64,000 nucleotides of DNA from Rhizophagus irregularis (taxonomy: Eukaryota): positions 682,001-746,000 of the forward strand of contig NC_089432.1 of NCBI RefSeq assembly GCF_026210795.1, written 5' to 3'. Shown here piece after piece: positions 15,548 to 64,000 of this stretch. The notes below the pieces were generated by a model that saw only the letters and a list, made by a program, of their open reading frames with translations, searched no databases and was not told the DNA's origin. Made by a program: the position numbers and the translations under genes. Numbering within the stretch: the stretch's first letter is position 1; every line of letters begins with the position of its first letter.

Positions 15548-16804
15548 GTTTATGCGCTATTTACAGGTATATATACAAAAATATGGTTGTTAAAGGTGAC
15601 CAACGTTGATAAACGATGAATATGTTTCGAAAGAGTATAATAATGTTGCGTAACACTGAGTAAAATTCGCACGTCTGAAATGTGTGTCAGGTTGACGGCG
15701 CAATGTGGTGCAGTAATTTCAAAAAATCTTTAACTTTTTTATGTAATGCTTTCAAATTTACACATTATGTGTATTTTAATCTGTTTTACAAAATTCACTT
15801 ATAAATGGAAGGAGGTTTTGGAAGTAGATTTGACTTTAGTATATAAAAACCGATTTTATCGTTTTTGCCGATCATTTCCAAAATTGGATTTGTCAAAAAA
15901 AAGGTTTTTGTTAAATAACTCGAAAATGCACCACCGTAGGATCTTGTGTAAATATCGAAATGTCATTTTTTTGTTATGTGGTAAATAAATAATGAGGATG
16001 ATCTAGGTTAAGTTGCGCACGATGTATTGTAAATGGTTATTTATGTGGGTAGCCTAAACATAACGCCCACGTGATTGCAGTGTTTTTAAATATTAGATAA
16101 CAGTTTTTAATTGATTTAATAATTAAATGGTGTGAACCCATTTTTTATTATCTAAATCACTTAACAAGAAATGATTCATGCCATTTCTTTATTAAACCTA
16201 TTGTTTGTTATCAAATTACTAATCAAAAATGGGTTCGCACCATATTTATTATCAAATGGCTAATAATTTAATAATATAACAGTGCGAACTCTTAAAACTT
16301 CAAAGATTTTTAAAATTAATTTTAACCCTTACAATTTAAGGGATAGTTAAATAAAGTATAATGCTTAAAAGCTTACTAACTTGTACTTAGTAATTATCCT
16401 AGTTTTTCTAATAAAGATTAAAATATACATTTTATAATTTGTTAAATAAAATTTATTATATCAAATAAATTAATATGCAATACATTTTATTTCAGTGATG
16501 TTTGTCATTAATGTCAAAATATTAGCTGTAAAATTTAACTAATATACTTTGTTATATTCTATTTAAAGATTTGAATAAATGTTTTATGTAATATTTTATA
16601 ACTTACTATAAAGTTGAGTTACTAAACATTTTATGAAGTATTCTAGGAGTAGATACTAGTAAATTTCCAACAAGTATGTATCAATTTTAATTTTTTCAAT
16701 AAAAAGTTCATGAAACGAACGATTTTCTTTTTATTTAATACTTAAAAAATTTTCCAAAGTATGTTGAATAAAGCAAAAATGATATTATTAAGAAAAGTAA
16801 ATAA

Positions 16805-27500: not shown

Positions 27501-28922
27501 TGATTGGATTTTTTTGGACTGGAGGTTATTTATTAAATACTGAAAGAATTCGGCTAAAATATGATGGATGGAAAAGATATTTTAATTTTTATAATTTTTT
27601 TGATTCGGTTTCAATACTTCTGCCAATGATATGTTATTTTACTGGATTTGTAAGATATAAAGCTGATTATATGACACCATTTACAATTTTGGTAATTTCA
27701 TTTGAGCATTTATTGGTAAGCTTATTTAAAATGTCTACATGCATTATAACATTTCATATGATATTATAAATTAATTATTATTAATTATACCAATTTTTTT
27801 TTAAAAAAATAGTTATTACGATATTTTGAAAAAACTGGGGCTTACATTTATATCATTGACAACATTTTGAAACAAATAATACCATTCTTACTTTTTATTC
27901 TTTTGTTTGTTTTCGGGATTGGTTTTTCAATGTTAGTTAAATTTAATTTGTGCAACCAATATTGTTCTCGTAATTATTAACTCATGAACCTTTGTATTTT
28001 ACTTGATAGGTTTGCTTTACTTAAGGATAATCATATTAAACCCGAAGGTACTACATATCAATTCGATGTAAATGGAAAAGACACTATTGAAATGAAACAA
28101 AGGATAGATGTAGATAATTATTATGCAAATTTACTTAAATCTATCGAAGCAGTTTTCTTTTGGACAAATGGTCGTTGGGATCAATTAGATCAATGGAATA
28201 TCTGGGAAGTAGATGTTATTTCTATCATTGGTAGTATTCTTCTTGTTACAATTTTACAGAATATGTTAATCGCAATTATGACGTAAGTGTTAACTTATAT
28301 TTGAATGATAATCAACTATGCAAAACTATCAACTAATTATTTCACTATTAGTTCGGCATTTGATGATGCAAAAGAAATTAGTAGACATGCCGTATTAAAA
28401 TTTCGGGCAGAAATGATTGCAGATTATGAAACAATTGAAAAATTATCTGGAAATGAAGATGGAAATCCTCGATATATATATTTTACTGCAAATTCTAATT
28501 ATATTGAAAGATGGTTAAAAAAATCTAAAAAAGCTAGAGACAATCATAAAAATTTATTAGCTAAAGTTGATGATGATGGTGATGATTCTAATGATGATGA
28601 TAATTGTGATGATGATAATTGTGATGATGATAATTGTGATGATGATAATAGTGGTGGTAATATTGTTGATAGTGATGGAGATCTGACCAATTCTCTTCAA
28701 ATTCCTTCTTCTAATACTTTTAATACTTTACAAAGTGAAGAACAAGTAATTCCATTATCATCATATTGGTTCGTTGATGAGGATGAAAATAAATCCCAAA
28801 CTTTATTAATAACTTCTTTAAAAATTCAATCTAATGATAATAATCAAATATTACAGGATAAAATTGATCAATTAATTTATTTATTACAAAATCAAAATAA
28901 TTGTTGTTCAAATAATGTTTAG
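24517..28922 (+). CDS. TRP-like cation channel (long N-terminal cytosolic region, ion-transport helices); multi-exon
   Basis: Motifs VYVVPLPDF, SPF...IYDNPSIAAIIDFKW, hydrophobic helices, pore-like FFWTNGRWDQ, and S6/TRP-box-like LQNMLIAIM...LKFRAEMIADYE. Introns near 26973-27042, 27716-27812, 27932-28009 and 28283-28350. Start codon uncertain. Confidence 0.8.
28570..28650 (+). repeat. Coding acidic repeat (GATGATGATAATTGT)n encoding DDDNC
   Basis: Three to four tandem 15-bp units in the last exon of the channel gene. Confidence 0.85.
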
Positions 28923-30705: not shown

Positions 30706-30994
30706 ACGCCCACCTAGCTTAGAAACTATGTCGATTATTTGGCTGGGGTGCACCAATCAAATCTGAAATCCTTTGATGTGTGAAAACAAATAAGGTTAGT
30801 CTTGCAGATCAACTTTATTACAAATATGCATCTGCCCTTCGATGAAGTAGTGAAGTACTTTCAAATAAAACCGAATTTTCAATGGTACAATAGCGAATTC
30901 ACCGACAGAAATTTCCTTTTTTTTTTAGGGATTCGTTATAAGAATTTGAAAAACTATAAATATGTCAAGTTTCTTATACTGTAATATTATAAAA

Positions 30995-33432
30995 ATGGAA
31001 CTTTTAAAATTAAATGATGAAAATTCTTTTGATCCAACACCGAAATTAAAATCTAGTCCCGTACCGATTTTTTTTGTTTCATTTAATTGTGATGATAAAA
31101 ATTGTTTTCATTGTGGAGAAGAGTATACGGAAATGACTATTTACAGATATTGCAAAAAATGTTTATCGTATTATTTAACCAATATAACCGATACTAATAA
31201 TATATACTTGGACGTACATTTATTCACAAAGGAACTGGAGTGTAATAAACATGAAATAAGTATAACAAAAGTACCACAAAATATCCAAGAATGCTGTAGA
31301 AATTGTTTGACAATATTATGCTTTAAACAAATATCTGATTATCGATTTAACCGGGATGCGGATAGTGAATCACACATTTCATATAAAAATTTAATTGAAA
31401 GTGAAAAATATTGTAATCTATGTGGAAAATTATTATATTATGGAACAGATAAAAAGAAGATAATATTGTGTTCAAGTTGTTATCTAATATCTTCCGGATG
31501 TATCGAATCAACCTTTACTAAAAAGTTTATTTCAATTATTTATTTGCCATGGTGGGATAATGTGTCTCAGTGTTATTTTTGTGATGAGGAATTAGTATTT
31601 ACATCAAAATGTCAAAAGTATTGTATGTATTGTATTATATTTTTTATTGGGTGTAGATACTGTTTAACAACAAACATAATTTTTGGATATACAAATCAAT
31701 CGCAATGTAAAAAGTGCAAAAGAATATCAACTATTACTATTGATATTAGAAAGATTATTAGTATTAACAGTGGGAATAGTGTTTTAGATGAATTTCTTGT
31801 TAGTACAAGATCATATCAATCAACAATAGCTAAATTTGTTGATAATGTAAAAAATATTGGTAGATGGTTCTCGCCAGATATAACTGCTTTTTTATATCAT
31901 GATATTGAAACATATAAAATTATGAATTATATACCATATTCTCAATTTACAAATGTAAAAGAATTAGCGGAAGGAGGATTTAGTATTGTGTATCAAGCAA
32001 CTTGGTTAGATGGTCCAAAAAATAGTGATAAAATTGCTATTTTAAAAAGATTTAAAAATTCTCGGGACGTTAGCAGATATTTTTTAGATGAGGTAAATAC
32101 TTTAGATTAAAAAATTCGTATTTGTTGTATGAAAATTTAAATTTAATCTTGAAATTTATAGTTAAAGTCGAATTATCATTGTTATTATCGTTATTTGATT
32201 AAAACTTATGGTTTTACAAAAGATCCTCAATCAGATATTTATATATTAGTTATGCAATATGCTCCAGAAGGAGATTTGCATAAGTATTTGCAAAAGAACT
32301 TTAGAGAAATTAAATGGATAAATAAATTATATTTCCTAGAATATATTATAATTGGGTATTTATATTTTAAATATATTAGTAAATGATTAATTTATAATAC
32401 AAATTTACTAATTACTATTATTTTAGACTTACTGATATTCATAGTAAAAATTTCATACATCGAGATTTCCACAGTGGGAATGTGTTGGTAAATTCGTCTG
32501 ACGATTGTTTTGTCGGGGATCTAGGATTATCACGACCTGCAAATGATAACTCATCGGATAATGAAATATATGGAGTGATACCTTATATTGCACCAGAAAT
32601 ATTTAAGGGGTCTGCATTTTCCAAAGAAACTGATATTTATAGCCTGGGTATGATTATGTGGGAACTGACAACAGGCTGTAAGCCTTTTGCTAATTTTGAA
32701 CATGATCATAGTCTTATTTATAAAATTATTGATGGTGTACGACCTGAAATTACAAAAGATACACCAGAATCCTATGCTGATTTAATGAAAAGTTGTTGGG
32801 ATCCTGATCCCAAAAAAAGACCTTCTATAAAAGAAATTTATAATATTAGTGATAAATGGCTTCAATCCAAAAGTAAATCCGATCAATCATTCGAAAATCA
32901 ATTTGATCAAGCTGAATTAATAAGGAAAAAGTTAATAGATTCAAAGAAGCTTGGACCCGAGTTCAGTGAAAAGTCTCATCCAAAAGCTATTTATACAAGT
33001 AGATCATTAAACTCTTACATTTCCAAATGTTCATCTATATTTTCTAAATGTTCATCAATAAATTTTACATCAAATGGTATGTATTTTGCTATTTAATAAA
33101 AATTATCTTTAGATAGATAAATTAATTTTACTTTATTTTTTTATAGATTACATTTCAGAAGAATTAAAATTAGACATAGATATTGAAAGGTATTATAAAA
33201 TTTAAAATATTTGTCATTTATAATTTAATCCAGCAACGAAAGTCTATAACAAATACAATTCTATATTAGTAGTGGGCTCAATTCACTTGGAATTAAGAGG
33301 AACATTGAAGAATTAAATATTAATTCTTGTGAAAATAATGGTAAATATTTTAAAATATTATTAAAATTTGTTTGCTTATATTGTTTATTTATTTTTCTAC
33401 TTTTAAAAATAGGAAAACGCATTAAAAATTAG
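30995..33432 (+). CDS. TKL-family protein kinase with Cys-rich N-terminal region; multi-exon
   Basis: Many CxxC pairs, then EGGFSIVY, ILKRF, YGFTKDP, VMQYAPEGDL, HRDFHSGNVL, GDLGLS, YGVIPYIAPE, DIYSLGMIMWELTTG and CWDPDPKKRP. Small 3' exons end at ~33432. Confidence 0.88.
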
Positions 33433-40747: not shown

Positions 40748-41140
40748 AATCAAGTGATTCAGTATTCCAGTTTGAAAATAAAGCTGGTGGTACAGCCTAA
40801 TGGGGCTGTTCTCAAAGTTAGAATCAAGTTATTCAGTCCGAAAATAAAACTGGTAGCATAGCCCAATGAGGCTGTTCTTAAAGTTATAATCAAGTTATTC
40901 AGTTGAAAATAAAGCTGGTGACATAGCCCAATGAGGCTGTTTTCAAAGTTATGATCAAGTTATTTAGTTGAAAATAAAGTTGATAGTACAGCCCAATGAG
41001 GCTGTTCTTGAAGTTATAATCAAGCTATTCAGTTTAAAAATAAAGTTGGTAGCACAGCCCATTCTCAAAGTTATAATCAAGTTATTCAGTCTGAAAATAA
41101 AGATAGTTACACAACCCAATGAGGCTGTTCTCAAAGTTAT
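40748..41140. repeat. 65-66-bp minisatellite, ~6 copies
   Basis: Unit approx. AATCAAGTTATTCAGTCTGAAAATAAAGCTGGTAGCACAGCCCAATGAGGCTGTTCTCAAAGTTAT. One copy lacks ~9-10 bp. Confidence 0.9.
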
Positions 41141-44969: not shown

Positions 44970-46706
44970 TGATAAAAAACGTTATTTTAACGTTACTTTA
45001 ATGTTTTTTTAAATTAACTATGATAAAAAAAATGGTATATAACGTTAAATAACGTTATTTTAACATGTTTTATAATAAAAAATGTTATATGACGTTAAAT
45101 AACGTTATTTTAACATGTTTTATAATAAAAAATGGTATATGACGTTAAATAACGTTATTTTAACATGTTTTATAATAAAAAATGGTATATGACGTTAAAT
45201 AACGTTATTTTAACATGTTTTATAATAAAAGAACGTTATATGACGTTAAATAACGTTATTTTAACATGTTTTATAATAAAAAATGGTATATGACGTTAAA
45301 TAACGTTATTTTAACATGTTTTATAATAAAAAATGGTATATGACGTTAAATAACGTTATTTTAACATGTTTTATAATAAAAAATGTTATATGACGTTAAA
45401 TAACGTTATTTTAACATGTTTTATAATAAAAAAATGTTATATGACGTTAAATAACGTTATTTAACATGTTTTACAATAAAAAAATGGTATATGACGTTAA
45501 ATAACGTTATTTAACATTATTTTAACATGTCTTATAATAAAAAAACGTTATATAACGTTATATAACGTTATTTTAACATGTTTTATAATAAAAGAACGTT
45601 ATATAACGTTATATAACGTTATTTTAACATGTTTTATAATAAAAGAACGTTATATAACGTTATATAACGTTATTTTAACATGTTTTATAATAAAAGAACG
45701 TTATATAACGTTATATAACGTTATTTTAACATGTTTTATAATAAAAGAACGTTATATAACGTTATATAACGTTATTTTAACATGTTTTATAATAAAAGAA
45801 CGTTATATAACGTTATATAACGTTATTTTAACATGTTTTATAATAAAAGAACGTTATATAACGTTATAATAAAAGAACGTTATATAACATTATTTAACGT
45901 TGTTTTAACATGTTTTATAATAAAAAATGGTATATGACGTTAAATAACGTTATTTTAACATGTTTTATAATAAAAAAATGTTATATGACGTTAAATAACG
46001 TTATTTAACATTATTTTAACATGTCTTATAATAAAAAAACGTTATTCTAACATGTCTTATAATGGAAAAACGTTATATAACGTTATTTTAACGTTATTTA
46101 ACATTTCTTATGATAAAAAAACGTTATTTTAACGTTATTTAACATTTCTTATGATAAAAAAACGTTATTTTAACGTTATTTAACATTTCTTATGATAAAA
46201 AAACGTTATTTTAACGTTATTTTAACATTTCTTATGATAAAAAATGTTATATAACGTTATTTTAACATGTTTTATAATAAAAGAACGTTATATAACGTTA
46301 TTTAACGTTATTTTAACATGTTTTATAATAAAAGAACGTTATATAACGTTATATAACGTTATTTTAACATGTTTTATAATAAAAGAACGTTATATAACGT
46401 TATATAACGTTATTTTAACATGTTTTATAATAAAAGAACGTTATATAACGTTATATAACGTTATTTTAACATGTTTTATAATAAAAAATGTTATATGACG
46501 TTATTTTAACATGTTTTATAATAAAAGAACGTTATATAACATTATTTAACGTTGTTTTAACATGTTTTATAATAAAAAATGGTATATGACGTTAAATAAC
46601 GTTATTTTAACATGTTTTATAATAAAAAATGTAATATGACGTTAAATAACGTTATTTTAACATGTTTTATAATAAAAAATGTTATATGACGTTATTTAAC
46701 GTTATT
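44970..46706. repeat. AT-rich satellite array of 50/51/41-bp units built from ~10-bp TAACGTTA-type subunits
   Basis: 50-bp unit AACGTTATTTTAACATGTTTTATAATAAAAAATGGTATATGACGTTAAAT, a 51-bp variant containing GAACGTTATATAACGTTATAT, and a 41-bp variant at ~46081-46240. Roughly 35 units. Confidence 0.95.
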
Positions 46707-47343
46707 TTTCCAATATCTACTGCGCCACCCAAAGTGCAATACAAGATCTTAGAGAATGCGAAATGAAAATAACAGCTAATACATAAAATATTTAAATGAA
46801 CATGAATTTTCAATCACTAAATATTACTTAAGGGTTTTATATTTAAGAATCCTTGGATAAATTAGTTTTTAACTGTAAATAAAAATATTGGCAAAATTAA
46901 ATTTTTGTTTTGTGCAAGAACAAAAATCGATCGACATAATATTAAAAAATGTGATTTATTCGTGATCTATCAAATTAACATTCATCTTTAGTAGCACAGT
47001 TAAATTCAGTGCAAAAAGTTAACATTATGATTGACTGTCTATGTACTGTACATGTACATGTACAGTACATGTTCATGTTAATGTACTGTACATGTACATG
47101 TATAAGTACATAAGTTATATAAGATTTGATGGACCTTTTTTTACCAAAAAGGAAATTTTTTTCAATTTCATGGCAATTCTGCATGTGGGTAAATATCAAA
47201 TTAAGAAACGATGTACATATATTCGAATTAATAAATTTGATAAATTTATAAAATGATTGACAAATGATTGACATAAAAATAACTACTTTTGTAAAAAACG
47301 CCCAACAAAAGATTATCTCTGTGTTAAAATAAATTAATAATAC

Positions 47344-48400
47344 GATGATAACTCTCTCTCCTTTCTCTCACTTTTCTTAATGGAAATAATATTTCACTCA
47401 TTTTAAAATACTCGTATTTAAAGAAGTTGCCCTAAATACCTGGTTAAAACACCAACTTGGTTTCCGCTACTTGTCTCTATTGGGTCCAGCGGCACTTGTT
47501 CATATGTTTTGAACGACTTTGGTTATAAGGTTGAAGATTCCAAGCTGGAAGGAAGAAATTTCCATTTCGCTCAGTGGTGAAAGTTCGCTTTCTTAATAAT
47601 AAGGGGTTGTTCCTGGTGATAGTTTGGTGAAGTTTCCCTCTTTACCTAGGTTTTTACTCCTTTGGGTTGGTTTTCCTAGGGTTATGAATTTTTCTTATTT
47701 TTTTGGTGAATTTTTCTCGTCTTTCTTTTTTGCCTTCTGCTTTTTGGAGTTTTTCTGGGGGGTAGGGGGGTATCCCAAAATTGATCGACATCAGGTGGTT
47801 TGTAGATCTTTTCTTTTGAGAGAGTTGGGTGTAATTTAAGGGGGGTGCAGATCTTGGTGATCAGTTTTTGGTCAGGTGAGGTCAAGGTGGTACATATTTG
47901 GACTATCATGGGTTTTTTTCTGCAGTTTAGTTTAGATTGGAGGGATCGTTCGAAATGAGGTGGGTGTCCTTTTGGGGATTGCACGACACTAAAAAGTTCC
48001 CCTTTAGTTTACTCTTAGGTAGTTTATTAACTCTGGTAATATAGTCACTTGGAGAATTTATTTTTATCGACCAGTGTGGGGGGATTTTTCCAACCAGGGG
48101 CTGGCGGTTCAGTTTGATAATCTGCGGGGTACGGGCTTCAACTTACCAAAACTTAGGTTTACCTAGGCGAGAGTATGGGAGGCAGTGGCGTTATCTGGGT
48201 TTTTGTGTCGTGGGGTCTAATTTTAGTATCTCACATTATACCTTCTTCCTGTTAATTGCCCACCGGTTTGAGTAGATTATTTTCGCGTGTAGTTTAGTTA
48301 GTATTTTTGTCAATTTTGACTTATATGTAATTTTCTACTTATAATCGCGTCCATGTTAGGTTTCTAACTGGAACCCATTAATAAAAATAAAAATAAAAAT
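47344..48400 (+). mobile_element. ~1.06-kb retroposed element without recognisable coding capacity (SINE-like passenger, or 3' end of a second LINE family)
   Basis: Bounded by AAATTAATAATAC at 47331-47343 and 48401-48413. TAAAAA-repeat tail at ~48379-48400. Shares 3' motif blocks with the LINE 3' UTR. G/T-rich top strand. Confidence 0.8.
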
Positions 48401-48413
48401 AAATTAATAATAC

Positions 48414-49070
48414 TGATCCTAACGTGTTTACTTTTATTGACATTATTAAAGGAATTATACCTATGTCACTTTCGGATTTGTTGAATTCTTGGACTACAAA
48501 GAAAAATGTTGTTGTTGTTTTGATTCAAATGAGACAGTTTATTTTCAATGAAATATTTGAAGAGGTTTGGATTCCACGGTGTTCGCACCTGAAGGAATTT
48601 GAACGTTCGTTAGGGTTGACTAAAAAGAAAAAATTAAAGTTTAAAAGTGTTCGTTCATTACCTAATAATAATAGTAGTAATAATAATATTATTCATTATG
48701 ATTCTTTAGATAGTGTTAGAAATTACATTTATTTTGGCAAAAATATAATAGAATTTTATACTAATCTTACTTCGTAGCGCCATTGTAGATTTTAGTAGTT
48801 GATTTATATAATTTTATAGGGTCAATTTTACTTTCTTCTGCAGGGCGGGCTTCAACTTACCAAGTTTTGGCTAGTGTATGGGAGGTAGTGGGTTAATTAA
48901 AGAAATGGTTTTTAGGTGTAGTTGGTTATATCTTTAATAGTTTCGTATTTAATTGCCCCACCGTCGAAGTAGATTCTTCTGATAGTTTAGTTCATTTTTT
49001 TATTTTACTTTTTCATTTTTGATATGTTTATAAAATTTGTTTTCGCTAACTATTACTGTTTAATAAAAAT
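48414..49070 (+). mobile_element. Heavily 5'-truncated LINE copy (ORF2 C-terminus + 3' UTR)
   Basis: Aligns with 55680-56335. Encodes DPNVFTFIDIIKG...FYTNLTS* (to 48777), followed by a short tail and AAATTAATAATAC at 49071-49083. Confidence 0.95.
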
Positions 49071-49083
49071 AAATTAATAATAC

Positions 49084-50574
49084 GGACTCTTTCAATACAA
49101 CACACAATTACCTATCGTTCAAATTGGTAAACAAGGGGCAAAGGTATCATTTTTGGATAAAGAAAAATTTGACCAATTTCTTAAAATGGAAATTGTTATT
49201 CAGGAGCAAAAAGAAGGTGATTCAGGTGTAGTGTTTAATGTGAAACTTCAACCTACCCCATTGAAGCCTGAGAAGGTGCCTACTACAAATGATAAGAATA
49301 GTGATATGTCACAAAATTCCAATAGTTGTACAATTCAAGTAATCGACATTCCTGCGTATAGGCAGGTACGCGAAATTCGTGAGTCCTTTGAAGATCTTGG
49401 TGAAATTGAGAAAATTTATACACGAGGTGCTGGTCTTTACCAAGTTGCTTTCATTACGTATAAAGATGCGAATTCTATTGATTATTTCAATGAACAATGG
49501 AGCTATCATATTAATAAAGACATAGTTAGAGTTTTACCCCTGTTATTGAGCAAGGAGGAACGCGAGAAAAGGAAGCAATTCTCGTTAAGATTATCAGGTT
49601 TACATTATCAAACTAGTGGTTATGATCTTAAGGAAGTTATGACACAATGTAAAGGGAAAACTTGTTTCATCCCAGCTGTTATGATTCGTGGTAAATATCA
49701 AAGGTGTCGATATGCTTACATTCATTTTTCTTCACAAGATGATTTGGTGGCAGCCAGACAAATGAAAATTGAATTCAAAAAGGGTAACGCAGGTACTCGA
49801 CAATTATACTGGAGTAAAGAGGAAGATCACATTTGTAATATTTGCGGTAATCCCACTCATATGGCCAAAGACTGTACCAACAAAGATATTAACAAATCTC
49901 AATCTAAACGTTTTGTTAGTGGCGCTGATAATTGGAAAAATTTGAAAAAGTCGTATGCGGATGCGACTAAATCTAAACAAAAGCCCAGAAATAGTTCTAA
50001 ATCTAATAATAATATTCCATCTGGATCATGTGATCTAGGAAAAGCTCGCAGCAATCATGATAATGATGATGACGATAGTGAAGATTTCAATAATCATCCG
50101 ATGTTTTTAAAATTCAAGGAACAAATTATTAGCACTATAAGAAAGGTGGAAGACAAAATGCTTAAAATGGAATCACTCATTGTTGACACTGGCAAGCAAA
50201 TTAGTGAAGTTGTTACTGCACAACAAGCGCTTAAATGTGATAAAGCGCATCCGGTCCCAACTAGTATGAAAAAGAAAAATCAACAATCTGTTTCTGGTGC
50301 AGAAGTTAAAGCAGCGAAAAAACGCTGTAAAAGTGACTCTGAATCAAGTGAAGATGAAGATGAACTAGCAAATAAATCCGTTCTTCAATCACAACAATTT
50401 CAGAAATCTGATCAAAATATCCAAAGCATTGTTGCACAACAAAAACAAATACAAGAAAACCACAAGGAAACTAAATCCTTACTCTCATCACTTTACAACA
50501 TGTTAGCTGGCGGCCCTTCAGCTTCATCATTATTGGGGGATAATGATGAAGTTTTTGATGATTCTGTCATATAA
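49084..50574 (+). pseudogene. LINE ORF1 of copy A (RRM-like domains, CCHC zinc knuckle, coiled coil), N-terminally truncated
   Basis: IQVIDIP...VAFITY and LRLSGL...YAYIHF RRM-like segments; CNICGNPTHMAKDC knuckle. Lacks the N-terminal ~220 aa seen in copy B. Confidence 0.85.
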
Positions 50575-50583
50575 TTATTTTTA

Positions 50584-53500
50584 ATGATGAACAATAATAT
50601 AATATCTCCCTCTAGTTCAACTTCTCAACAACAAAAAAATTTCCCCCAAATAGAAAATAACAATCCATTAATTACTAAAAATTTTTTAAAAAATTCTTCA
50701 ATAACGAAAATAGCTACTACGAATATTCGTACCCTTAGTAAAGACAAATTAATTTTCACGTTAGATGCGATGAAAAACAATGATATTGACATATATGGAT
50801 TAGCCGAGACTAATCTTTCTTATAGACAATCGAAAATATGGCAACAACAATTTGGTTTCCATGGTTATTTTGATTATTCACAACAAGGGGGTAAAAGTCA
50901 AGGTGTAGGAATTATCGTTAGCAATAAATACGATATTTTTGTTCATAAAGCGGTTGGTCATAAAGGCCGTGTTATATATCTAGACTTAAATTTTAGTCAA
51001 AAGAAAAATGTTAGGTTAATTCAGGTGTACATTAACGCTAATAAAAAAGAAAGAACACAAATTGAGGAGCTATATCAATATATCGAAAATACTATTGATG
51101 ATGCGAAAAACAAGAATATGGAAATAATCATTATGGGTGATTTCAATATTAATTATAGAAAATATTTGATGGCATTTGTTAATAATAGATGGTATTTCAA
51201 ATTGTTCAAAATGCTAGAAAACAGACACTTCTTAGATACAATTCCAATATTTAACGAAGATGACGAAAATATATATACTTATATTCCGCCTAATGATTCT
51301 AATGAAAAATCAAGAATAGATTATATTTGGGCTTCATTACCAATACTTGGCCAAAGTTTGAATAGTACTGTAATAGAAAATGATCATTTTACAACTGATC
51401 ATAATACTGTCACTTTATCGCTTGATACACAATTATTTATAGGAAAAACATTACCTAAGATTAACAAAAGTAAAAAGAAAATAACTCGTACTGTGTTTTT
51501 ATATGATGAAATGGATCAGGAAGATGATGAATTTACATGGGATAATTTCCGTGCTGGTTTGGATCATGAAATCGAAAGACTCAAACTAAAGGATCGATCG
51601 ATCACGAAAAGAAAACATGTTGATCATGTGTGGGATTCTCTTAGACAACTTATCATGAAATCTGCTAATGAAAATATAAAAAACAAAAAAGTTATAAAAC
51701 AGAAAATCAAATGTGCTCCTGAGAAAAAGTTGTCCGTTTACTTTGACTTAAGATATATTATTAATCGTATTCAAGAAATCCGCTCATGTATCACAGGATT
51801 AAGAAACTATCCAAATCAGGAAACGATCGACAAATGGATTAATTATCAAAACACGATAATTAAACTAAAAGACAAGTACGAGTTAGTTACTTCTGATACT
51901 AGTTTTAATTTCTTAAATAATGATCAGTTCCATAGTTATCTTGACGAACTTAATGAAATTAGAAAACAATTGAGAATTGTTTTTAAACTTGAACTTAACA
52001 TTATGGAACAAGAACAAATTATCTCTAACATCAAAAAGCGATGTGATAATTATAAAGATGATCAAGGGAGAATGATTCAATCTATTACAGAAAAAGAAAT
52101 GGTTTCTATTTCAATTGAAAAAATTTATAAGAAAGATCATAATGGTAATGAAGTTTTAATTACAGATGAGAATCAGGTGATGGAAGAAACAAATTGTCAT
52201 TTTCAAACAGTAGCGGGCTCTGTTAATAGAAAGAAACCAATACAAGGCAGATGGAAAGAACAATATAAACCACAGCCTCATATTAACGAAAATATATATT
52301 CTGGTATTATGGACGCTCCATCTTATGATGAATGGTTAGATATTATTCGACAACTATCTAATGGAAAAGCGACAGGACCTTCAGGCGTGTCGAATGAAAT
52401 GTTGAAACATCTAAGTGATGATTGTAATCATATTTTATATTATTTAATTTGTAAGATTATAGAATTGGGATATTTACCAAAACAATGGAAAGAAGCGACG
52501 GTCTTTCCTATTGCTAAACCTAAACCCTTTAATTGTGAATTATCAAACTCTCGCCCTATTACTCTTTTAGAAACCACTCGAAAAGCACTCATTTCTTTGC
52601 TAAATCGTCGTTTAACAATTATTTTGAAAGATAATAACGTATTAAAGGCAAACCAATTCGCGGGTCTGCCTAAACAATCAACATTTGAACCGATAAGGAT
52701 TATGAACGAAGTTATTCAAGATTCAATCGATAATAATAATGAATTATGGATACTCTCTCAGGATATGGGAAAGGCCTATGATCGTGTGAACATCTTTCAA
52801 CTCAAAAAAGCGATGGATAGAATTAAAATTCCTAACGAATTTTCATCCCTCATTTTAGAACTTTTTAAAGATAGAAAAAATCAAGTAATCACTGCGTATG
52901 GAAAAACTACACCTTATGATGTTCTTACAGGAATCGATCAAGGAGAAGTTATTTCACCGTTGCTTTGGTGTATTTATTACGATCCTCTTTTAGCAGAAAT
53001 TAATAAACAACAATTGGGATATAATATTTCTTGTATATCAAAATCAGTTGTTCAAGAAGAAGGTGTTCTTAATCAACAAAATGTTTCCATTATGGCGTAT
53101 ATGGATGATACTCAATGGATTACTGATGAAAAATCAAAATTGGAAAAAATGTTATACATCGCTGATACATTTTATCGTCTTAACGATATTCAAATTAACA
53201 AAGAAAAGTCTGAGCTTATGATGCGGTCTACAACTGAGAAGCGTAAATATTCTCATAATTACAATGATAAAATTTCAATCAAATTTGGTCGTGAAGAAAT
53301 TAATATTAAAGCCAAACATCCACACGAACCTATGCGTATCCTGGGAGTATATTTCAATATTGAATATGATGGAAATTATTTGATGTTCAAGATCAAGAAT
53401 GAAATAGACCATTTAGTTAATCTTATGTATAAAAAGAAGATTACTGATAAACATATTTTATATATATTTAATAGAATTATCGTCCCTCGAGTTGAATACT

Positions 53501-56044
53501 GGTCACAAGTTATGGCTTTATCAAAAACACAAACAGAATCTTTAATTATTCCTTTTAGAAGGATGTTTAAAAACAAACTAAAATTCGCTCGTTCAGCGCC
53601 TAACGCTATACTCGATAATCCTTATATATATGGATATAGAGATTTTTACGACAATCAACTTCAAGCCAAAATTACGGATTTTTGTATTCAACTTAACGAC
53701 AATGGTCTCTTAGGAAAAGTTACTGAAATTCGTTTAAAATCCTTACAGGATCAATTATGGACATCGCGCCCATTAATAGAAAAACTTCCTTATAATCGTG
53801 TTCCGCACACACGAAAAAATAATTATATTCTTAATATGCTTTTATTATGCTATGATAATAATATTTCGTTAGAATATTTAGATGATAATATTTTTCCATC
53901 AATTAAAGGAGGTAAAATTCCTTTGGAAGACGTGGTAGATAATGCATATTATTCTAAACATAGGAAGAGACTTCGTGAAAAGAATATCTTATTTTTAGAT
54001 CAAATTATTTCAGGTGATAAATTTCGTTTATTGTTATGGAAAGAAATACTTATTAAGGCTTATATTCCTATTTTTTCACAACGGAAAGAAACTAAATGGT
54101 ATTCAGATATTAGAAATTTAATTACTTCAGATGGTGTTCATTTGAATCATAATATAACACAATTATTTGGCGCTCGTGTTGATAATGTGGAAGAGACTCG
54201 ATCATATGATATTAATAAAAAAAATAGATCTTTAGTTGCATGTTATAATTCACAATTTAACTCTGTAGTCATTGGAAAGATTCAAAGAATAGATGAAACA
54301 AAACGACCTGTTATTAAACATTTTCATATTGATATGTCTCGATGTACCGATACACATACTTATATATATCAATGTATGGAATATGGATGTGCTGCTAATG
54401 CATCATTATCAACTCGATCACCTTGTACGTTTTCTGCTGACTGGGAATGTTTAGTACCATTATTAACAGATTCTCAATTTGCGCCTAGTCAACTTATAAA
54501 CTTAATAGAATTTAATATTTTTGACATTTTTGATTTTGCAAAAAAGAAATATGATATTATAAATCAAGCGTTAACGCAAAATCACGTGATTTCTCCTTCT
54601 TCACAATTACAAGATAATATAATTTTAGATTTATTAGATTCTTCAACTTCAAGAAATGACTTGTTAACTATACAACGAACATTAGCTCCTTTTGACAATA
54701 ACAATTATTATATTTTTGAATTTTACACTGATGGATCTTTAATCGAATTAGGTACTGAGCAGTGTAGTATCAGTTGCGCCTTCGCTCAGATTAGTGATTT
54801 GTTTGATATACCTCATGTCGAATTTTATTCTACTATTGATAAATAGCCTTCTGCATATAGAGGAGAATTGTTAGCTGTTCTTTTAGCATTAAGCGTTGTT
54901 CCAAAAAATAGTAAAGTTAGAATTAACACAGACTCGCTTAACGTGATTACTCAATTTGAAAAATTGAAGAAGTCAAGATTTTCTCAAACCTCACGTGAAT
55001 ACTTTAAGGCTAATAATAATTTCTTATGGGCTATTTTATGTAGAATCATATTAACATTGAACTTGCATGTGGAAATGTTTAAGGTTGTTGCTCATGGTGA
55101 TGATATGGGTAATAATTATGTAGATAATTTGGCGAAAATTGCACATACTGATCAAGATCGCTATATAGTTTTACGACAGAACGCTTGTATGATGAAAGTT
55201 CTTCCTTGTTGGAATGGAATTATTATTGAAAATAAGCTGCACTCATTTTTGAAAAATATATGCAACTACAAAGGTTTAGAAAAATTTATTAATTTGAATA
55301 GAAATTCTAAATATCGCACGCTAGAAGTCGACTGGACATTCACATTTAGTTGTTTAAATTGTGACATAAATAACAATGAAACTTCTGTTTCTTCTTCTAA
55401 AACGAAAGCTCAAAAAGTTCACTTGTTAATTGAAGAAATTCCTACAATTGAACAGATGAAGAAATCATTGTTTGACTTATATGATGGTTGGATGTGCCCT
55501 ATATGTGGTCTACAAGATGAAACCTTTAATCATGTCTGGACGTGTAGTGGTCATTATGATATTATTAACAACATTCGAGATAAGACTATTAATCATCTCT
55601 TAACTTGGATATTAGAATATAATGATAATATACAAGATTTTAATGCTCTTATGGCACTTGATATATGGGATATATCTTATGATCCTAACGTGTTTACTTT
55701 TATTGACTTGATTAAAGGTATTATACCTATGTCACTTTCAGAATTATTGAATTCCTGGACTACAAAGAAAAATGTTGTTGATGTTTTGGTTCAAATGAGA
55801 CAGTTTATTTTTAATGCTATATTCGAAGAAGTTTGGATTCCAAGGTGTTCGCATTTGAAGGAATTTGAACATTCTATAGGATTAACTAAAAAGAAAAAAA
55901 TTAGAATTCAAAAGCGTTCGTTCATTACCTAGTAATAATAGTAGTTATACTAATAATATTCATTATGATTCTTTAGATAGTGTTAGGAATTACATTTATT
56001 TTGGTAAAAATATAATAGAATTTTATACTAATCTTACTTCGTAG
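50584..56044 (+). pseudogene. LINE ORF2 of copy A: AP endonuclease - reverse transcriptase - RNase H - CCHC finger; disrupted
   Basis: APE motifs TTNIR, GLAET, MGDFN, SRIDYIW, TDH. RT motifs KATGPSG, RPITLLE, QDMGKAYD, GIDQG, YMDD. RNase H motifs YTDGS, ELLA, NTDS, AH...GNNYVD. C-terminal CPICGLQDETFNHVWTC. In-frame TAG at 54844-54846 (TGG in copy B) and an extra A at ~55895-55899. Confidence 0.93.
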
Positions 56045-56476
56045 CGCCATCGTAGATTTTAGTAGTTTGATTTATATAATTTTATAGGGTCAATTTTACT
56101 TTCTTCTGCAGGGCGGGCTTCAACTTACCAAGTTTCGGCTAGTGTATGGGAGGTAGTGGGTTAATTAAAGAAATGGTTTTTAGGTGTAGTTGGTTATATC
56201 TTTAATAGTTTCGTATTTAATTGCCCCACCGTCAAAGTAGATTCTTCTGATAGTTTAGTTCATTTTTTTATTTTACTTCTTCATTTCTGATATGTTTATA
56301 AAATTTGTATTCGCTAACTATTACTGTTCAATAAAAATAAAAATAAAAATAAAAATAAAAAATAAAAATAAATTAATAATACTAAAATGATTATCTGGGT
56401 GTTAATTCACATAAAAATATGGCAAATTGTTAAAATCGCTTAAAATCCGCAGTAAATATTTAACAATTTATAGAAA

Positions 56477-58625
56477 ATGTCTGGAAACGCTAAACGAGGT
56501 GGTAGAGGTGGTAGACAAACACGTAGCTCAAGCCGTAATTCCCAAGCAGGTGGAAGTAGGCCAACTAGTCCTGAAAACCAGTTCACCTTCAGTGCACCGA
56601 AGGAAACTGCTTCTCATCATGAGAGTATTTGGAATACCTATCGGAAAAAGCCGCAGCCAACTTCTGACAAAAAACTGACAGAAACCATGGAAGCTGAACG
56701 TGCTATGGACATGGAAAAAGAAATTGTTCAGGATACTTATGGTCCAAACTCCAAATCTTCTTCTGGTAACAACTAAGGGAAAGCTACTGAAAAGTCCAAG
56801 CCGGTCGCGAAAGATTTGTCACGTGACCCTCCCTTACCTCCGCAGAATATTGTTAACAACGTGAATGGAACCAATAAGATTCCGACTCTTAACAAAGAAA
56901 TTACTTCAACTCCTCATAAAGATCAACAACAATCTGTTGTATTGCCTAATCAGGAAAAGATTAATCTGCAAGTTGATCAAGGGTCCCAGCCCATGGATGT
57001 TGATCCTAGTACTTCTAACAAAGACCCGTCGATCATCACTATAGAAAAAGTAAAAGAACACATTGCACTTGTTCCATATGGTGAGCTTATTGGAGGAAAA
57101 AATCTGAAAACTACTAAAATTAAAAAGGCACTACAAACCTATAATATCCAATATAACAAACAACTTCCAGTTACCCCGTTGGGGAAACAAGGGGCCAAGG
57201 TATCATTTTTAGATAAAGAAAAATTTGACCAATTTCTCAAAATGGAACTAATTATTCAGGAGCAAAAAGAAGGCGATTCGGGTGAAGTGTTTAATGTGAA
57301 ACTCCAACCTACCCCATTAAAACCTGAAAAGGTGGCTACTACAAACGACAATAATAATGACATGTCACAAAATTCCAACAGTCGTACAATTCAAGTGATC
57401 GATATTCCTGCATTTCGACAGGTACGCGAAATTCGTGAGTCCTTTGAAGATCTTGGTGAAATTGAGAAAATTTATACGAGAGGTGCTGGTCTTTACCAAG
57501 TTGCCTTCATTACGTATAAGGATGCTACTTCTATTGATTACTTTAAAGAGCAATGGAGCTATCATATTAATAAAGACATAGTTAGAGTCTTACCTTTGTT
57601 ATTGAGCAAGGAGGAACGCGAGAATAGGAAGCAATTCTCGTTAAGATTGTCAGGATTACATTATCAAACTAGTGGTTATGATCTCAAGGAAGTTATGACA
57701 CAATGTAAAGGGAAAACTTGTTTTATCCCAGCTGTTATGATTCGTGGTAAATATCAAAGATGTCGCTATGCTTACATCCATTTTTCTTCGAGAGATGATT
57801 TGGTGGCAGCCAGACAAATGAATATTGAATTTAAAAAAGGCCACGCTGGTACTCGACATTTATATTGGAGCAAAGAAGAAGACCGCATTTGTAATATTTG
57901 CGGTAATCCCACTCATATGGCCAAAGACTGTACTAACAAAGATATTAACAAATCTCATTCCAAACGGTTTGTTAGTGGTGCTGATAATTGGAAAAATTTA
58001 AAAAGTCGTATGCAGATGCGGCTAAATCTAAACAAAATTCCAGAAATAATTCTAAATTTAATAAAAATATTCCCTCTGGATCACGTGATCAAGGAAGACC
58101 TCGCAGTAATCATGATAATAATGACGACGATAGTGATGATTTTAATAACCATCCGATGTTTTTAAAATTCAAGGAACAAATTATTAACACTATAAGGAAG
58201 GTTGAAGATAAATTGCTCAATATGGAGTCGCTTATTAGCGATACTGGCAAGCAAATTGGTGAAGTTGTTACGGCTCAACAAGCGCTTAAATGTGATAAAG
58301 CGCATCCAGTTCCGATTAATAAGAAAAAGAATAATCATCAATCTGGTAATAATACAGAAGTTAAAGCGAAAAGACGCTGTAAAAGTGATTCTGAATCAAG
58401 TGAAGATGAAGATGAACTCGCGAATAAGTCCATTATTCAATCACAACAATTCCAAAAATCTGATCAAAACATTCAAAGTATTGTTGCTCAACAGAAGCAA
58501 ATACAACAAAATCACCAGGAAACTAAATCCTTACTTTCATCTCTTTACAACATGTTAGCTGGTGGCCCTTCAGCTTCGTCATTATTGGGGATAATGATGA
58601 AGTTTTTGAGGATTCTGCCGTATAA
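56477..58625 (+). pseudogene. LINE ORF1 of copy B, disrupted
   Basis: Starts MSGNAKRGGRGGR. In-frame TAA at 56774-56776. Single-base deletions relative to copy A at ~58000 and ~58588. RRM-like and CCHC domains as in copy A. Confidence 0.88.
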
Positions 58626-58633
58626 TTATTTTT

Positions 58634-61600
58634 ATGATGAACAATAATATAATTTCTCCTTCTAGTTCGAACATTCAACAACAAAAAAATTTCCCCCAAA
58701 TAGAAAATAACAACCCAATTATTACAAAAGATTCTTTAAAAAATTTTTCAATAACGAAAATAGCTACTACGAATATTCGTACCCTTAGTAAAGACAAATT
58801 AATTTTTACGTTAGATGCGATGAAAAATAATGATATTGACATATATGGATTAGCTGAGACTAATCTTTCTTATAGACAATCGAAAATTTGGCAACAACAA
58901 TTTGGTTTCCATGGTTATTTTGATTATTCACAACAAGGGGGTAAAGGTCAAGGCATAGGAATTATCGTTAGCGATAAATACGATATATTTGTTCATAAAG
59001 CGGTTGGTCATAAAGGCCGTGTTATATATTTAGACTTAAATTTTAGTCAAAAGAAAAATGTTAGGTTACTTCAGGTGTACATTAACGCTAACAAAAATGA
59101 AAGAACACAAATTGAGGAACTTTATCAATATATCGAAAATGTTATCGATGACGCGAAAAACAAAAATATGGAAATAATCATTATGGGTGATTTCAACATT
59201 AATTATAGAAAATATTTGATGTCATTTGTTAATAATAGATGGTATTTCAAATTGTTCAAAATGCTAGAAAACAGACACCTTTTAGATACAATTCCGATAT
59301 TCAACGAAGATGACGAAAATATATATACTTATATTCCGCCTAATGATTCTAATGAAAAATCAAGAATAGATTATATTTGGGCTTCATTACCAATACTTGG
59401 CCAAAGTTTGAATAGTACTGTAATAGAAAATGATCATTTTACAACTGATCATAATACTGTCACTTTATCGCTTGATACACAATTATTTATAGGAAAAACA
59501 TTACCTAAGATTAACAAAAGTAAAAAGAAAATAACTCGTACTGTGTTTTTATATGATGAAATGGATCAGGAAGATGATGAATTTACATGGGATAATTTCC
59601 GTGCTGGTTTGGATCATGAAATCGAAAGACTCAAACTAAAGGATCGATCGATCACGAAAAGAAAACATGTTGATCATGTGTGGGATTCTCTTAGACAACT
59701 TATCATGAAATCTGCTAATGAAAATATAAAAAACAAAAAAGTGATAAAACAGAAAATCAAATGTGCTCCTGAGAAAAAGTTGTCAGTTTACTTTGATTTA
59801 AGATATATCATTAATCGTATTCAAGAAATCCGCTCATGTATCACAAAATTAAGAAACCATCCAAATCAGGAAATGATCGACAAATGGATTAATTATCAAA
59901 ATGCGATAATTAAATTAAAAGACAAGTATGAGTTAGTTACTTCTGACAATAATTTTAATTTCTTAGATAATGATCAGTTCCATAGATATCTTGATGAACT
60001 TAATGAAATTAGAAAACAATTGAGAATTGTTTTTAAACTTGAACTTAATATTATGGAACAAGAACAAATTATCTCTAACATCAAGAAGCGATGTGATAAT
60101 TATAAAGAAGATCAAGGAAGAATGATTCAATCTATTACAGAAAAAGAAATGGTTTCCATTTTTATTGAAAAAATTTATAAGAAAGATCATAATGGTAATG
60201 AAGTCTTAATTACAGATGAGAATCACATGATAGAAGAAACAAATCGTCATTTTCAAACAGTGGCAGGCTCTGTTAATCGAAAGAAACCAATACAAGGCAG
60301 ATGGAAAGAGCAATATAAACCACAGTCTCATATTAACGAAAATATATACTCTAGCATTATGGACGCTCCATCTTATGATGAATGGTTAGATATTATTCGA
60401 CAACTATCTAATGGAAAAGCGACAGGACCTTCTGGCGTGTCGAATGAAATGTTAAAACATCTAAGTGATGATTGTAATCATATTTTATATTATTTAATTT
60501 GTAAGATTATAGAATTGGGATATTTACCAAAACAATGGAAAGATGCGATGGTCTTTCCTATTGCTAAACCTAAACCCTTTAATTGTGAATTATCAAACTC
60601 TCGCCCTATTACTCTTTTAGAAACCACTCGAAAAGCACTTATTTCCTTGCTAAATCGTCGTTTAGCAATCATTTTGAAAGATAATAATGTACTAAAGGCA
60701 AATCAATTCGCTGGTCTGCCTAAACAATCAACATTTGAACCGATAAGGATTATGAACGAAGTTATTCAAGATTCAATCGATAATAATAATGAATTATGGA
60801 TACTCTCTCAGGATATGGGAAAGGCTTATGATCGTGTGAACATCTTTCAACTCAAAAAAGCGATGGATAGAATTAAAATTCCTAACGATTTTTCATCTCT
60901 CATTTTAGAACTTTTTAAAGATAGAAAAAATCAAGTAATCACTGCGTATGGAAAAACTGCACCTTATGATGTTCTTACAGGAATCGATCAAGAAGAAGTT
61001 ATTTCACCGTTACTTTGGTGTATTTATTACGATCCTCTTTTAGCAGAAATTGATAAACAACAATTGGGATATAATATTTCTTGTATATCAAAATCAGTTG
61101 TTCAAGAAGAAGGTGTACTCAATCAACAAAATGTTTCCATTATGGCGTATATGGATGATACTCAATGGATTACTGATGAAAAATCGAAATTGGAAAAGAT
61201 GTTATACATTGCTGATACATTTTATCATCTTAATGATATTCAAATCAACAAAGAAAAGTCTGAGCTTATGATGAGAACTACAACTGAGAAGCGTAAATAT
61301 TCTCATAATTACAATGACAAAATTTCAATCAAGTTTGGTCGTGAAGAAATTAATATTAAAGCCAAACATCCACACGAACCTATGCGTATCCTGGGAGTGT
61401 ATTTTAATATTGAACATGATGGAAATTATCTAATGTTCAAAATCAAGAATGAAATAGACCATTTAGTTAATCTTATGTATAAAAAGAAGATTACTGATAA
61501 ACATATTTTGTATATATTTAATAGAATTATCGTTCCTCGAGTTGAATACTGGTCACAAGTTATGGCTTTATCAAAAACACAAACAGAATCTTTAATTATT

Positions 61601-64000
61601 CCTTTTAGAAGGATGTTTAAAAACAAATTAAAATTCGCTCGTTCAGCGCCTAACGCTATACTTGATAATCCTTATATATATGGATATAGAGATTTTTACG
61701 ACAATCAACTTCAAGCCAAAATTACTGATTTTTGTATTCAACTTAATGATAATGGTCTATTAGGAAAAGTTACTGAAATTCGTTTAAAATCCTTACAGGA
61801 TCAATTATGGACATCGCGCCCATTGATAGAAAAACTTCCTTATAATCGTGTTTCGCATACACGAAAAAATAATTATATTCTTAATATGCTTTTATTATGT
61901 TATGATAACAATATTTCGTTAGAAAATTTAGATAAATTTATTTTTCCATCAATTAAAGGAGGTACAATTCCTTTGGAAGACGTGGTTGATAATGCATATT
62001 ATTCCAAATATAGGATGAGACTTCGTGAAAAGAATATTTTATTTTTAGATCAAATTATTTCAGGTGATAAATCTCGTTTATTGTTATGGAAAGAAATACT
62101 TATTAAGGCTTATATTCCTGTTTTTTCACAACGGAAAGAAACTAAATGGTATTCAGATATTAGAAACTTAATTACTTCAGATGGTGTTCATTTGATTCTT
62201 AATATAACACAATTATTTGGCGCTCGTGTTGACAATGTGGAAGAGGCTCGATCATATGATATTGCTAAAAAAAATAGATCTTTAATAGCCGTTTATAATT
62301 CACAATTTAACTCCGTAGTTATTGGTAAAATTCAAGGAATAGATGATACACAACGACCTGTTATTAAACATTTTCATATTGATATGTCTAGATGTACCAA
62401 TACACATACTTATATATATCAATGTATGGAATATGGATGTGCTGCTAATGCATCATTATCAATACGATCACCTTGTACGTTTTCTGCTGACTGGGAATGT
62501 TTAGTACCATTATTAACAGATTCTCAATTTGCACCTAGTCAACTTACAAACTTAATAGAATTTAATATTTTTGACATTTTTGATTTTGCAAAAAAGAAGT
62601 ATGATATTATACATCAAGCGTTAACGCAAAATCACGTGATTTCATCACAAGTGCAAGATAATATAATTTTGGATTTATTAGATTCTTCAACTTCAAGAAA
62701 TGACTTGTTAACTATACAACGCACATTAGCTCCTTTTGACAACAACAATTATTATATTTTTGAGTTTTACACCGATGGATCATTAATAGAATTAGGTACT
62801 GAACAATGTAGTATTAGTTGCGCTTTCGCTCAGATTAGTGATTTATTTGATATACCTCATGTAGAATTTTATTCTACTATTGATAAATGGCCTTCTGCAT
62901 ATAGAGGAGAATTATTAGCAGTCCTTTTAGCATTAAGCGTTGTTCCAAAAAATAGCAAAGTTAGAATTAATACAGATTCGCTTAACGTAATTACACAATT
63001 TGAAAAATTAAAGAACTCAAGATTTTCTCAAACTTCACGAGAATACTTTAAGACTAATAATAATTTCTTATGAGCTATTTTATGTAGAATTATATTAACA
63101 TTGAACTTGCATGTGGAAATGTTTAAAGTTGTTGCTCATGGTGATGATATGGGTAATAATTATGTAGATAATTTGGCAAAAATTGCACATACTGATCAGG
63201 ATCGCTATATAGTTTTTCAACGGGATGCTTGTATGATGAAAGTTCTTCCTTGTTGGAATGGGATTATTATTGAAAATAAGCTGCGTTCATTTTTGAAAAA
63301 TATATGCAACTACAAAGGATTGGAAAAATTTATTAATTTAAACAGAAATTCTAAATATCGCACGTTAGAAGTTGACTGGACATCCACATTTAGTTGTTTA
63401 AATTGTGATATAAATAACAATGAAACTTCTGTTTCTTCTTCTAAAACGAAAGCTCAAAAAGTTCACTTGTTAATTGAAGAAATTCCTACAATTGAACAGA
63501 TGAAGAAATCATTGCTTGACTTATATGATGGTTGGATGTGCCCTATATGTGGACTACAAGACGAAACTTTTAATCATGTCTGGACGTGTAGTGGTCATTA
63601 TGATATTATTCACAACATTAGAGATAAGACTATTATTCATCTCTTGACCTGGATTTTGGAATATAATGATAATATACACGATTTTAATGCTCTTATGGCG
63701 CTTGATATATGGGATATATCTTATGATCCTAACGTATTTACTTTCATCGATCTTATTAAAGGACTTATACCTATGTCACTTTCAGATTTGTTGAGTTCTT
63801 GGACTACAAAGAATAACGTTGCTGATGTTTTAATTCAAATGAGGCAGTTTATTTTTAATGAGATATTTGAAGAGGTTTGGATTCCAAGGTGTTCGCATTT
63901 GAAGGAATTTGAACGTTCTTTAGGGTTGACTAAAAAGAAAAAATTAGAGTTTAAAAGCGTTCGTTTATTACCTAATAATAATAATAGTAATAATAATATT
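58634..64000 (+). pseudogene. LINE ORF2 of copy B (APE-RT-RNaseH-CCHC), disrupted, incomplete at the window edge
   Basis: Same motifs as copy A. In-frame TGA at 63071-63073 (TGG in copy A). RT motif reads GIDQE instead of GIDQG. Confidence 0.93.

Follow-up and report, generated by a model that had tools for sequence, protein, structure and literature searches.

Head-to-tail LINE copies in Rhizophagus irregularis separated by a recurrent 18-bp motif, a probable target-site duplication

Introduction

To our knowledge, repeated insertion at one and the same site by LINEs with an APE-type endonuclease has so far been described mainly in animals. Among APE LINEs, target specificity has been described as largely limited to the Tx1 and R1 clades (PMC4640811). 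In Drosophila, tandem R1 copies in the 28S rDNA are separated by a target-site duplication (TSD) of 14 bp and have non-templated bases at their 5' junctions, and an array gains copies when a new element inserts into the TSD at the 5' end of one already in place (PMC2718515). In Xenopus Tx1L and the Tx1 clade, an APE domain is combined with a fixed site in repeated sequence (PMC1950540, PMC4640811), and ORF1 in this clade carries an RRM and a zinc knuckle (PMC5203782). General background is given in PMC3956500 and PMC5203782.

In fungi, the targeted non-LTR elements described in the sources consulted are R2-like and telomeric (PMC12810828). These include Cryptococcus CNL1 and Magnaporthe MoTeR, which form arrays at preferred sites; the TSDs of CNL1 are 0-13 bp long (PMC12810828). 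Grem-LINE1 of Mucor is a two-ORF APE LINE of a Mucoromycota fungus that is concentrated at particular loci. Its published domains are Zf, AP, RVT and zf-RVT, RNase H is not listed, and the available part of that source makes no mention of a fixed TSD (10.1101/706580). A transposable element library for R. irregularis lists LINE/L1-Tx1, L1-R1 and LINE/I families, and the family described below is probably already present in it under one such label (PMC11075540). The available text of that paper contains no occurrence of 'target site', and the motif described below is absent from the one supplement searched. No report of a site-specific LINE in Glomeromycotina was found in a literature search that missed most subscription journals, Repbase and the library of PMC11075540, which may describe one.

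Here we describe an array of retroelements at the right end of a 64,000-nucleotide stretch of the R. irregularis genome (NC_089432.1, positions 682,001 to 746,000), referred to as the window. All coordinates are positions within it.

Results

Anatomy of the array

The array consists of four retroelement copies, E1 to E4, arranged head to tail on the + strand, with lengths of 1052, 652, 7281 and at least 7618 bp (the window end cuts E4). It is preceded by a left flank (46709..47325) that is AT-rich, contains no RNA gene and follows a 51-bp satellite. E2, E3 and E4 are 91-94% identical in their overlapping parts and, judged on sequence, are members of one two-ORF LINE family. E2 (48414..49065) is a 5'-truncated copy made up of the last 120 codons of ORF2 (48415-48774), the 3' UTR and a minimal tail. 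Its coding part is open and differs at one of 120 residues from P0182, an intact public copy of ORF2. E3 (49084..56364) is truncated in ORF1 and comprises seven extra bases (49084-49090), ORF1 codons 224-717, ORF2 (50587-56044), the 3' UTR and a tail (56330-56364); a stop at 54844 and a frameshift near 55890 disable its ORF2. The seven extra bases are not ORF1 sequence. The start of E3 reads GGACTCTTTC, which resembles the motif ACTCT(T)TCC considered below, and the extra bases could possibly stem from a template switch from the 5' end of an RNA. E4 (56383..64000) has a 94-bp 5' UTR, ORF1 from 56477, and ORF2 from 58637 with APE, RT, RNase H and CCHC domains. A preliminary description, drawn up from the letters of the window, had called E4 apparently full-length. 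It is near full length but disabled by three changes, namely a stop at 56774 and a frameshift near 58000 in ORF1, and a stop at 63071 in ORF2.

The tails of E1, E2 and E3 contain three, one and six AAAAAT-type units, respectively. Self-blast of the window revealed no LTR-like repeat, and a consensus fold of the 3' UTR blocks, built from three sequences only, has no covariation support.

E1 (47344..48395) has six copy-specific bases (47344-47349), a shared start at 47350, LINE-like 3' motifs and an (AAAAAT)n tail (48380-48395). Unitigs of E1 start at 47350 in three read runs, so the six preceding bases are specific to this copy. Its description as a 1-kb non-coding element stands, in that its longest open frame is 108 codons, but E1 is not unrelated DNA: the final 300 bp have motif blocks in common with the LINE 3' UTR, at a score of 65 compared with 35 for the best of 500 shuffles. 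E1 begins with ACTCTCTCTCC. A motif like it, ACTCT(T)TCC, is present 90-280 nt ahead of the start of ORF1 in 7 of the 12 metagenome loci examined, compared with 0.1 per kb overall, and this resemblance suggests that E1 is likely to be complete. Having no ORF, a 3' end shared with the LINE, the same kind of tail and the same presumed TSD, E1 is likely a non-autonomous, SINE-like partner of the LINE. A classical SINE with a tRNA, 5S or 7SL head was rejected on the absence of any Rfam or ARAGORN match over E1.

Proteins encoded by the LINE

ORF1 encodes 717 aa with weak Pfam matches to an RRM and a CCHC zinc knuckle, and is intact in the public copy P0242. ORF2 spans 1816 aa in P0182 and contains APE, RT, RNase H and a C-terminal CCHC. 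The Pfam families Exo_endo_phos and RVT_1 match ORF2 above cut-off, RNase_H matches the intact P0182 with an E-value of 7e-13, and zf-RVT has no Pfam match on ORF2. With APE followed by RT in ORF2, an ORF1 of nucleic-acid-binding type, an A-rich tail, 5' truncations and no LTR, the family is by its sequence features an APE-type non-LTR retrotransposon. Identity of ORF2 to NCBI proteins is 96-98% for R. irregularis and 63-64% for R. clarus.

The APE domain of E4 lies at 58727..59506 (+ strand), and its catalytic residues are invariant in 42 aligned relatives. The model (pLDDT 87) matches L1-EN and cellular ExoIII/APE1 equally well, with tied Z scores of about 25. A single-sequence fold (pLDDT 39) was left out of the structure comparison. 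The hairpin loop has 10 residues between anchors compared with 7 in a high-copy family, and loop length is not diagnostic of specificity, since R1Bm (short) and Tx1L (long) are both specific. The RT match to human L1 is weak (E 2e-12) and equal to the match to R2. Clusters combining APE, RT and RNase H exist in the Atlas, where they are given without taxa.

An 18-bp motif at every element boundary

The window contains exactly four copies of the 18-mer AAAATAAATTAATAATAC, one at the left border of the array and one at each of the three internal junctions, all of them element boundaries. The left copy (47326..47343) is the presumed target site and first TSD, and exact matches follow at 48396..48413, 49066..49083 and 56365..56382. 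All four lie on the + strand, with the 13-mer within them starting at 47331, 48401, 49071 and 56370; exact searches of both strands found neither word on the - strand of the window. Allowing one mismatch to the 18-mer returns the same four sites only. Shuffled windows contain a mean of 0.01 matches and none of 100 shuffles reaches four, while a third-order Markov model predicts 0.0008 18-mers and 0.09 13-mers per window. The preliminary description had placed the motif at the left border and at each internal junction, each time followed by a different element in the same orientation; these positions are confirmed, and the window contains no further copy.

On the bottom strand, the sequence TTTT/AA coincides precisely with the 18-bp edge at the left border. 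All four copies end at AATAC, and the sequence 3' of the motif is different at every junction. The last tail unit overlaps the motif, which gives a duplication length of 13 to 18 bp. It had also been proposed that the same TSD is regenerated each time. At this array, the proposal is well supported by a fixed motif at four of four junctions that flanks E1 on both sides, follows tails of differing length in two element types, and is succeeded by a different 5' end each time. That the motif forms the terminus of the element is unlikely, because it comes after a variable tail in two element types whose 3' ends differ and because its left copy has no element upstream. We consider it probable that the motif is a TSD arising from repeated insertion at one nucleotide.

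The left 37 kb of the window contain genes with Sel1, kinase, TPR and Crinkler domains, followed by about 10 kb with no ORF of 150 aa, plus the satellite. Similarity between the left flank and the LINE 3' end was not detected by blastn. An RNA gene as target was rejected: the window contains no tRNA and nothing that reaches the Rfam gathering score, and microRNA matches below threshold fall on palindromic repeats. A telomeric array of the HeT-A/TART type was rejected because the array has genes on its 5' side and its copies are separated by a host motif.

Evidence for separate insertions at a partly bridged locus

We compared the LINE copies with one another and with read-derived contigs. Over 1793 codons of ORF2, E3 and E4 differ with dS 0.177 and dN 0.023 (dN/dS 0.13), which points to divergence under selection between active sources and not to decay after a duplication. 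Together with the unequal tails and the different truncation points, these diverged sources argue for separate insertions, in agreement with the initial view that the copies are not a simple tandem duplication.

Contigs of run X1 span the left flank, motif and start of E1 (46720-47379) and the E2 tail, motif and start of E3 (49044-49392) with no differences; X1 may be the window's own source. Read-derived contigs thus bridge two of the four junctions, and the E1-E2 and E3-E4 junctions are without an independent bridge. This comparison left out the tails at 48373-48414 as repetitive sequence. One read-derived contig starts at the first base of E2, and the public gene model P0162 runs from E2 into E3 at 99% identity. 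Depth in X1 is 1049 for the E2-motif-E3 contig and 131 for the flank, an 8-fold ratio that does not represent copy number. In runs X9 and X10, E3-type ORF1 has nearly the depth of the flank. The flank contig, for its part, is about 4-5 times as deep as long low-depth contigs, a ratio that likewise is no copy number.

Other loci and relatives

Accession order was used as a proxy for adjacency: gene calls of the family that share a contig and are no more than 15 accession numbers apart were treated as near. Among the listed members, 3 of 19 near-accession groups are distinct neighbouring copies, 14 represent isoforms or fragments of a single copy, and 2 are ambiguous. In CAB4376944/45, a gene model extends from the C-terminal end of one copy into ORF2 1132-1223 of a second, the two copies differing at 14 of 102 residues; a single model implies the same strand and a head-to-tail order, probably with another truncation point. 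The neighbouring copies CAB4403612/13 differ at 44 of 567 residues, and those within CAB5392153-63 have 41 differences in ORF1. These public gene calls suggest that stacking recurs at other loci. Three further gene models (P0196, P0160 and P0100) run from the LINE end into unrelated exons, and the translated tail-plus-motif is absent from all retrieved proteins.

The family is present on at least 15 contigs of the DAOM 181602 GBC/GET records and, in the OCT59 records, on at least 10 chromosome-scale contigs; a fixed target, if there is one, must therefore occur at many places. An exact 18-mer is expected by chance about twice per 150 Mb, and the target must therefore be a repeat or be looser than 18 bp. 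No repeat serving as such a target was identified.

An RT-motif scan covered at least 119 metagenome stretches, with flanks for 80 of them, and 38 prokaryote stretches; 109 of the 157 loci match ORF2 by tblastn. Among the matches listed, none of these 109 loci of the wider group has the 18-mer within two mismatches and none represents the window's family with a readable flank, the nearest 3'-end-bearing locus (L030) belonging to a sister family. Six of the 18 loci shown end in plain poly(A) followed by unrelated AT-rich DNA, and these six are about 30% identical at the protein level. In a FastTree RT tree of 156 rows of retrieved relatives, the metagenome loci fall outside the seven-row Rhizophagus clade of the window's family. 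Viral contigs gave no RT-motif match and one unrelated match to the 3' UTR motif, and scans of metagenome, viral and prokaryote contigs with the C-terminal alignment A2 yielded no confirmed locus. A search for TSDs in 11 distant loci found only short AT-rich words. Head-to-tail joins are present in distant families too. The gene model P0038, from the high-copy family, contains two ORF2s, and at L033 and L061 a 3' end is joined to the next 5' end via a different 56-nt linker, distinct from the motif of the array. Adjacency alone is thus no proof of specificity.

Comparison with described elements

The array resembles Drosophila R1 in being APE-type and head to tail, in its fixed TSD, in combining full-length with 5'-truncated copies, and in the extra bases between TSD and 5' end. 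It differs in its AT-rich, non-genic target, where R1 uses rDNA, in a duplication of 13-18 bp, in its fungal host, and in a stack that includes a non-coding partner. The likeness to Tx1L and the Tx1 clade lies in an APE domain with a fixed site and in the domains of ORF1; in contrast, the ORF2 described here has RNase H, and no host DNA transposon was identified around the site. With human L1, the family shares the TTTT/AA nick context, an A-rich tail and a matching EN model (Z 25.3, rmsd 2.6, 227 aligned residues, tied with cellular ExoIII). Human L1 TSDs are variable in length. L1 differs further in being promiscuous (PMC1950540) and in having no RNase H.

Among the fungal elements, Grem-LINE1 shares the two-ORF APE architecture and the concentration at particular loci. 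The window's family has RNase H and no zf-RVT, and the window is gene-rich up to 37 kb; identity as Grem-LINE1 was rejected on domain content as published in the available part of 10.1101/706580. CNL1 and MoTeR share the formation of fungal non-LTR arrays at preferred sites, but are R2-related and telomeric and are not two-ORF APE elements (PMC12810828).

Discussion

The evidence that the 18-mer is a TSD is strong at this locus, and family-wide specificity is plausible. Of the explanations considered, we lean towards repeated insertion at a family-wide sequence target, with the 18-mer as the TSD regenerated at each event. The APE domain would nick the bottom strand where the motif's edge reads TTTT/AA. 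The T-rich end thereby released would pair with the AAUAAAAAU end of the RNA and prime reverse transcription, slippage would give rise to the (AAAAAT)n tail, and the top strand would be cut 18 bp away, after AATAC. Priming of the second strand may add a few extra bases (6 at E1 and 7 at E3). E1 likely borrows the ORF2 of the LINE. Each event would leave an intact motif at both ends, which the next event could reuse. By analogy with Drosophila R1, reuse of the upstream copy is likely, and the close similarity of E2 to the sole intact ORF2 found, with E3 and E4 disabled, weakly fits addition on the upstream side. At its other loci, the family would likely target the same sequence or a less strict version of it. 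Human L1, which is promiscuous, has the TTTT/AA nick context too (PMC1950540), and this counts against the specificity reading.

The main rival holds that the family returns to its own copies, drawn by the 5' end, the tail or local chromatin, and cuts with a fixed stagger, so that the TSD would be constant within an array and different at each locus, the 18-mer being peculiar to this array. We regard this as rather unlikely, though it would account for stacks elsewhere without a common motif. The A-rich tail offers L1-type nick sites, Cryptococcus CNL1 has been reported to insert into its own copies (PMC12810828), and the left flank at 47311-47327 resembles the E4 5' UTR at 15 of 17 bases, a match reached in 3 of 1000 shuffles between stretches chosen after the fact. 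However, the several equivalent nick sites in (AAAAAT)n, combined with a fixed stagger, would vary the end of the TSD, and all four copies end at AATAC. The sequences on the 3' side also differ at every junction, which leaves a returning enzyme only the motif and its upstream flank in common.

It is improbable that the motif was carried by RNA, with transcripts that extend past the tail to include the 18-mer, and an RT that either jumps between templates, producing one concatemer, or uses the read-through end to pair with the target. R1 transcripts do extend into target sequence downstream, which may anneal at the nick (PMC2718515), and the high X1 depth of the E2-motif-E3 contig relative to the flank would fit composite transcripts or copies, depth being no copy number. 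Against this, three RNAs (from E1, E2 and E3) must all end at the same base behind unequal tails, and the left copy of the 18-mer has no element upstream. Annealing of a read-through RNA is compatible with insertion at a family-wide target as a helper step. An origin of the array by DNA-level duplication or recombination, or by repeat misassembly, is very improbable given the dN/dS of E3 and E4, the different truncation points and tails of the copies, and the bridging of two junctions in read-derived contigs and of one in a separate public gene model. In its favour, the depths of the contigs at the flank and the junction hint that the locus may in part be multi-copy, and two junctions have no such bridge.

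If each locus proves to have its own TSD, the finding shrinks to a habit of self-stacking. If insertion at a family-wide target is correct, a fixed 18-bp duplication in a fungal family with APE and RNase H would provide an independent case for how an L1-like endonuclease gains specificity. Tentatively, and with slightly more doubt than confidence, we propose a third independent origin of sequence specificity among APE LINEs, beside Tx1 and R1: an RNase H-bearing family of arbuscular mycorrhizal fungi that, with its non-coding partner, would insert genome-wide at an 18-bp non-genic motif, renew its own landing pads, and constitute a natural site-specific integration system in these fungi. A family with a fixed duplication of this kind would account for the local stacking of LINEs and for differences between strains of R. 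irregularis. R. irregularis is hard to transform, and the motif, if its role is as proposed, would point to a harmless landing site in this fungus.

Genes and tandem repeats left of the landing site

The left part of the window (4807-36954) encodes four Sel1-repeat genes, one kinase and one TPR protein. It also holds a PD-(D/E)XK nuclease at 12810-13574 and, at 15047-15556, a Crinkler N-terminal domain. This gene set consists of expanded families typical of R. irregularis. Four further long open frames, of 824 (24502-26976), 255 (27002-27769), 205 (28305-28922) and 386 amino acids (30950-32110), have no Pfam match.

Tandem repeats lie between these genes and the landing site, the 18-bp motif whose left copy is at 47326-47343. 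A 65-bp repeat is present at 40763-41140, and an 82-bp repeat precedes an AT-rich, partly palindromic 51-bp satellite with 33.7 copies (45026-46708). The satellite ends upstream of the landing site, separated from it by 620 bp. A palindromic hexamer microsatellite, (ATGTAC)n, occupies 47041-47111, 215 bp upstream of the target. Palindromic (TTGCTA)n-like repeats are also seen right behind the 3' end of a sister-family LINE copy in a metagenome locus (L030:4464-4543).

Sequence around the motif copies

Upstream of the motif is an imperfect inverted repeat (47125-47310) with its arms about 160 bp apart. Both arms are matched by a contig of sequencing run X1 with differing sequence in between, at a depth of 607, which is no measure of copy number. 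The inverted repeat is possibly a MITE family adjoining the target. The stretch leading up to the motif (47311-47327) is identical at 15 of 17 bases to the 5' UTR of the fourth element of the array, the LINE copy E4 (56389-56405), a likeness reached in 3 of 1000 shuffles for stretches that were selected post hoc.

The contig across the junction between LINE copies E2 and E3 (49044-49392) has 8 times the depth of the flank in run X1, with no such excess in X9 or X10. Amplification, read-through transcripts or library bias could each account for the excess.

5' motif and candidate stacked copies in related LINEs

Distant members of the LINE group share ACTCT(T)TCC upstream of ORF1 at seven metagenome loci (L013:102, L040:1776, L047:110, L056:170, L002:210, L033:6395 and L061:5355), and this motif is likely the 5' terminus or initiator of these LINEs. 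At two loci of a distant family (L033:6189-6788 and L061:5149-5911), the 3' UTR runs, without poly(A), into a 56-nt pyrimidine-rich linker, and beyond the linker follows what seems to be a second copy, starting with its 5' end and ORF1. Three public gene models (P0318, P0275 and P0038) contain a section of ORF1 or ORF2 more than once, a hint that copies are nested or stacked in the genomes of R. irregularis and R. clarus.
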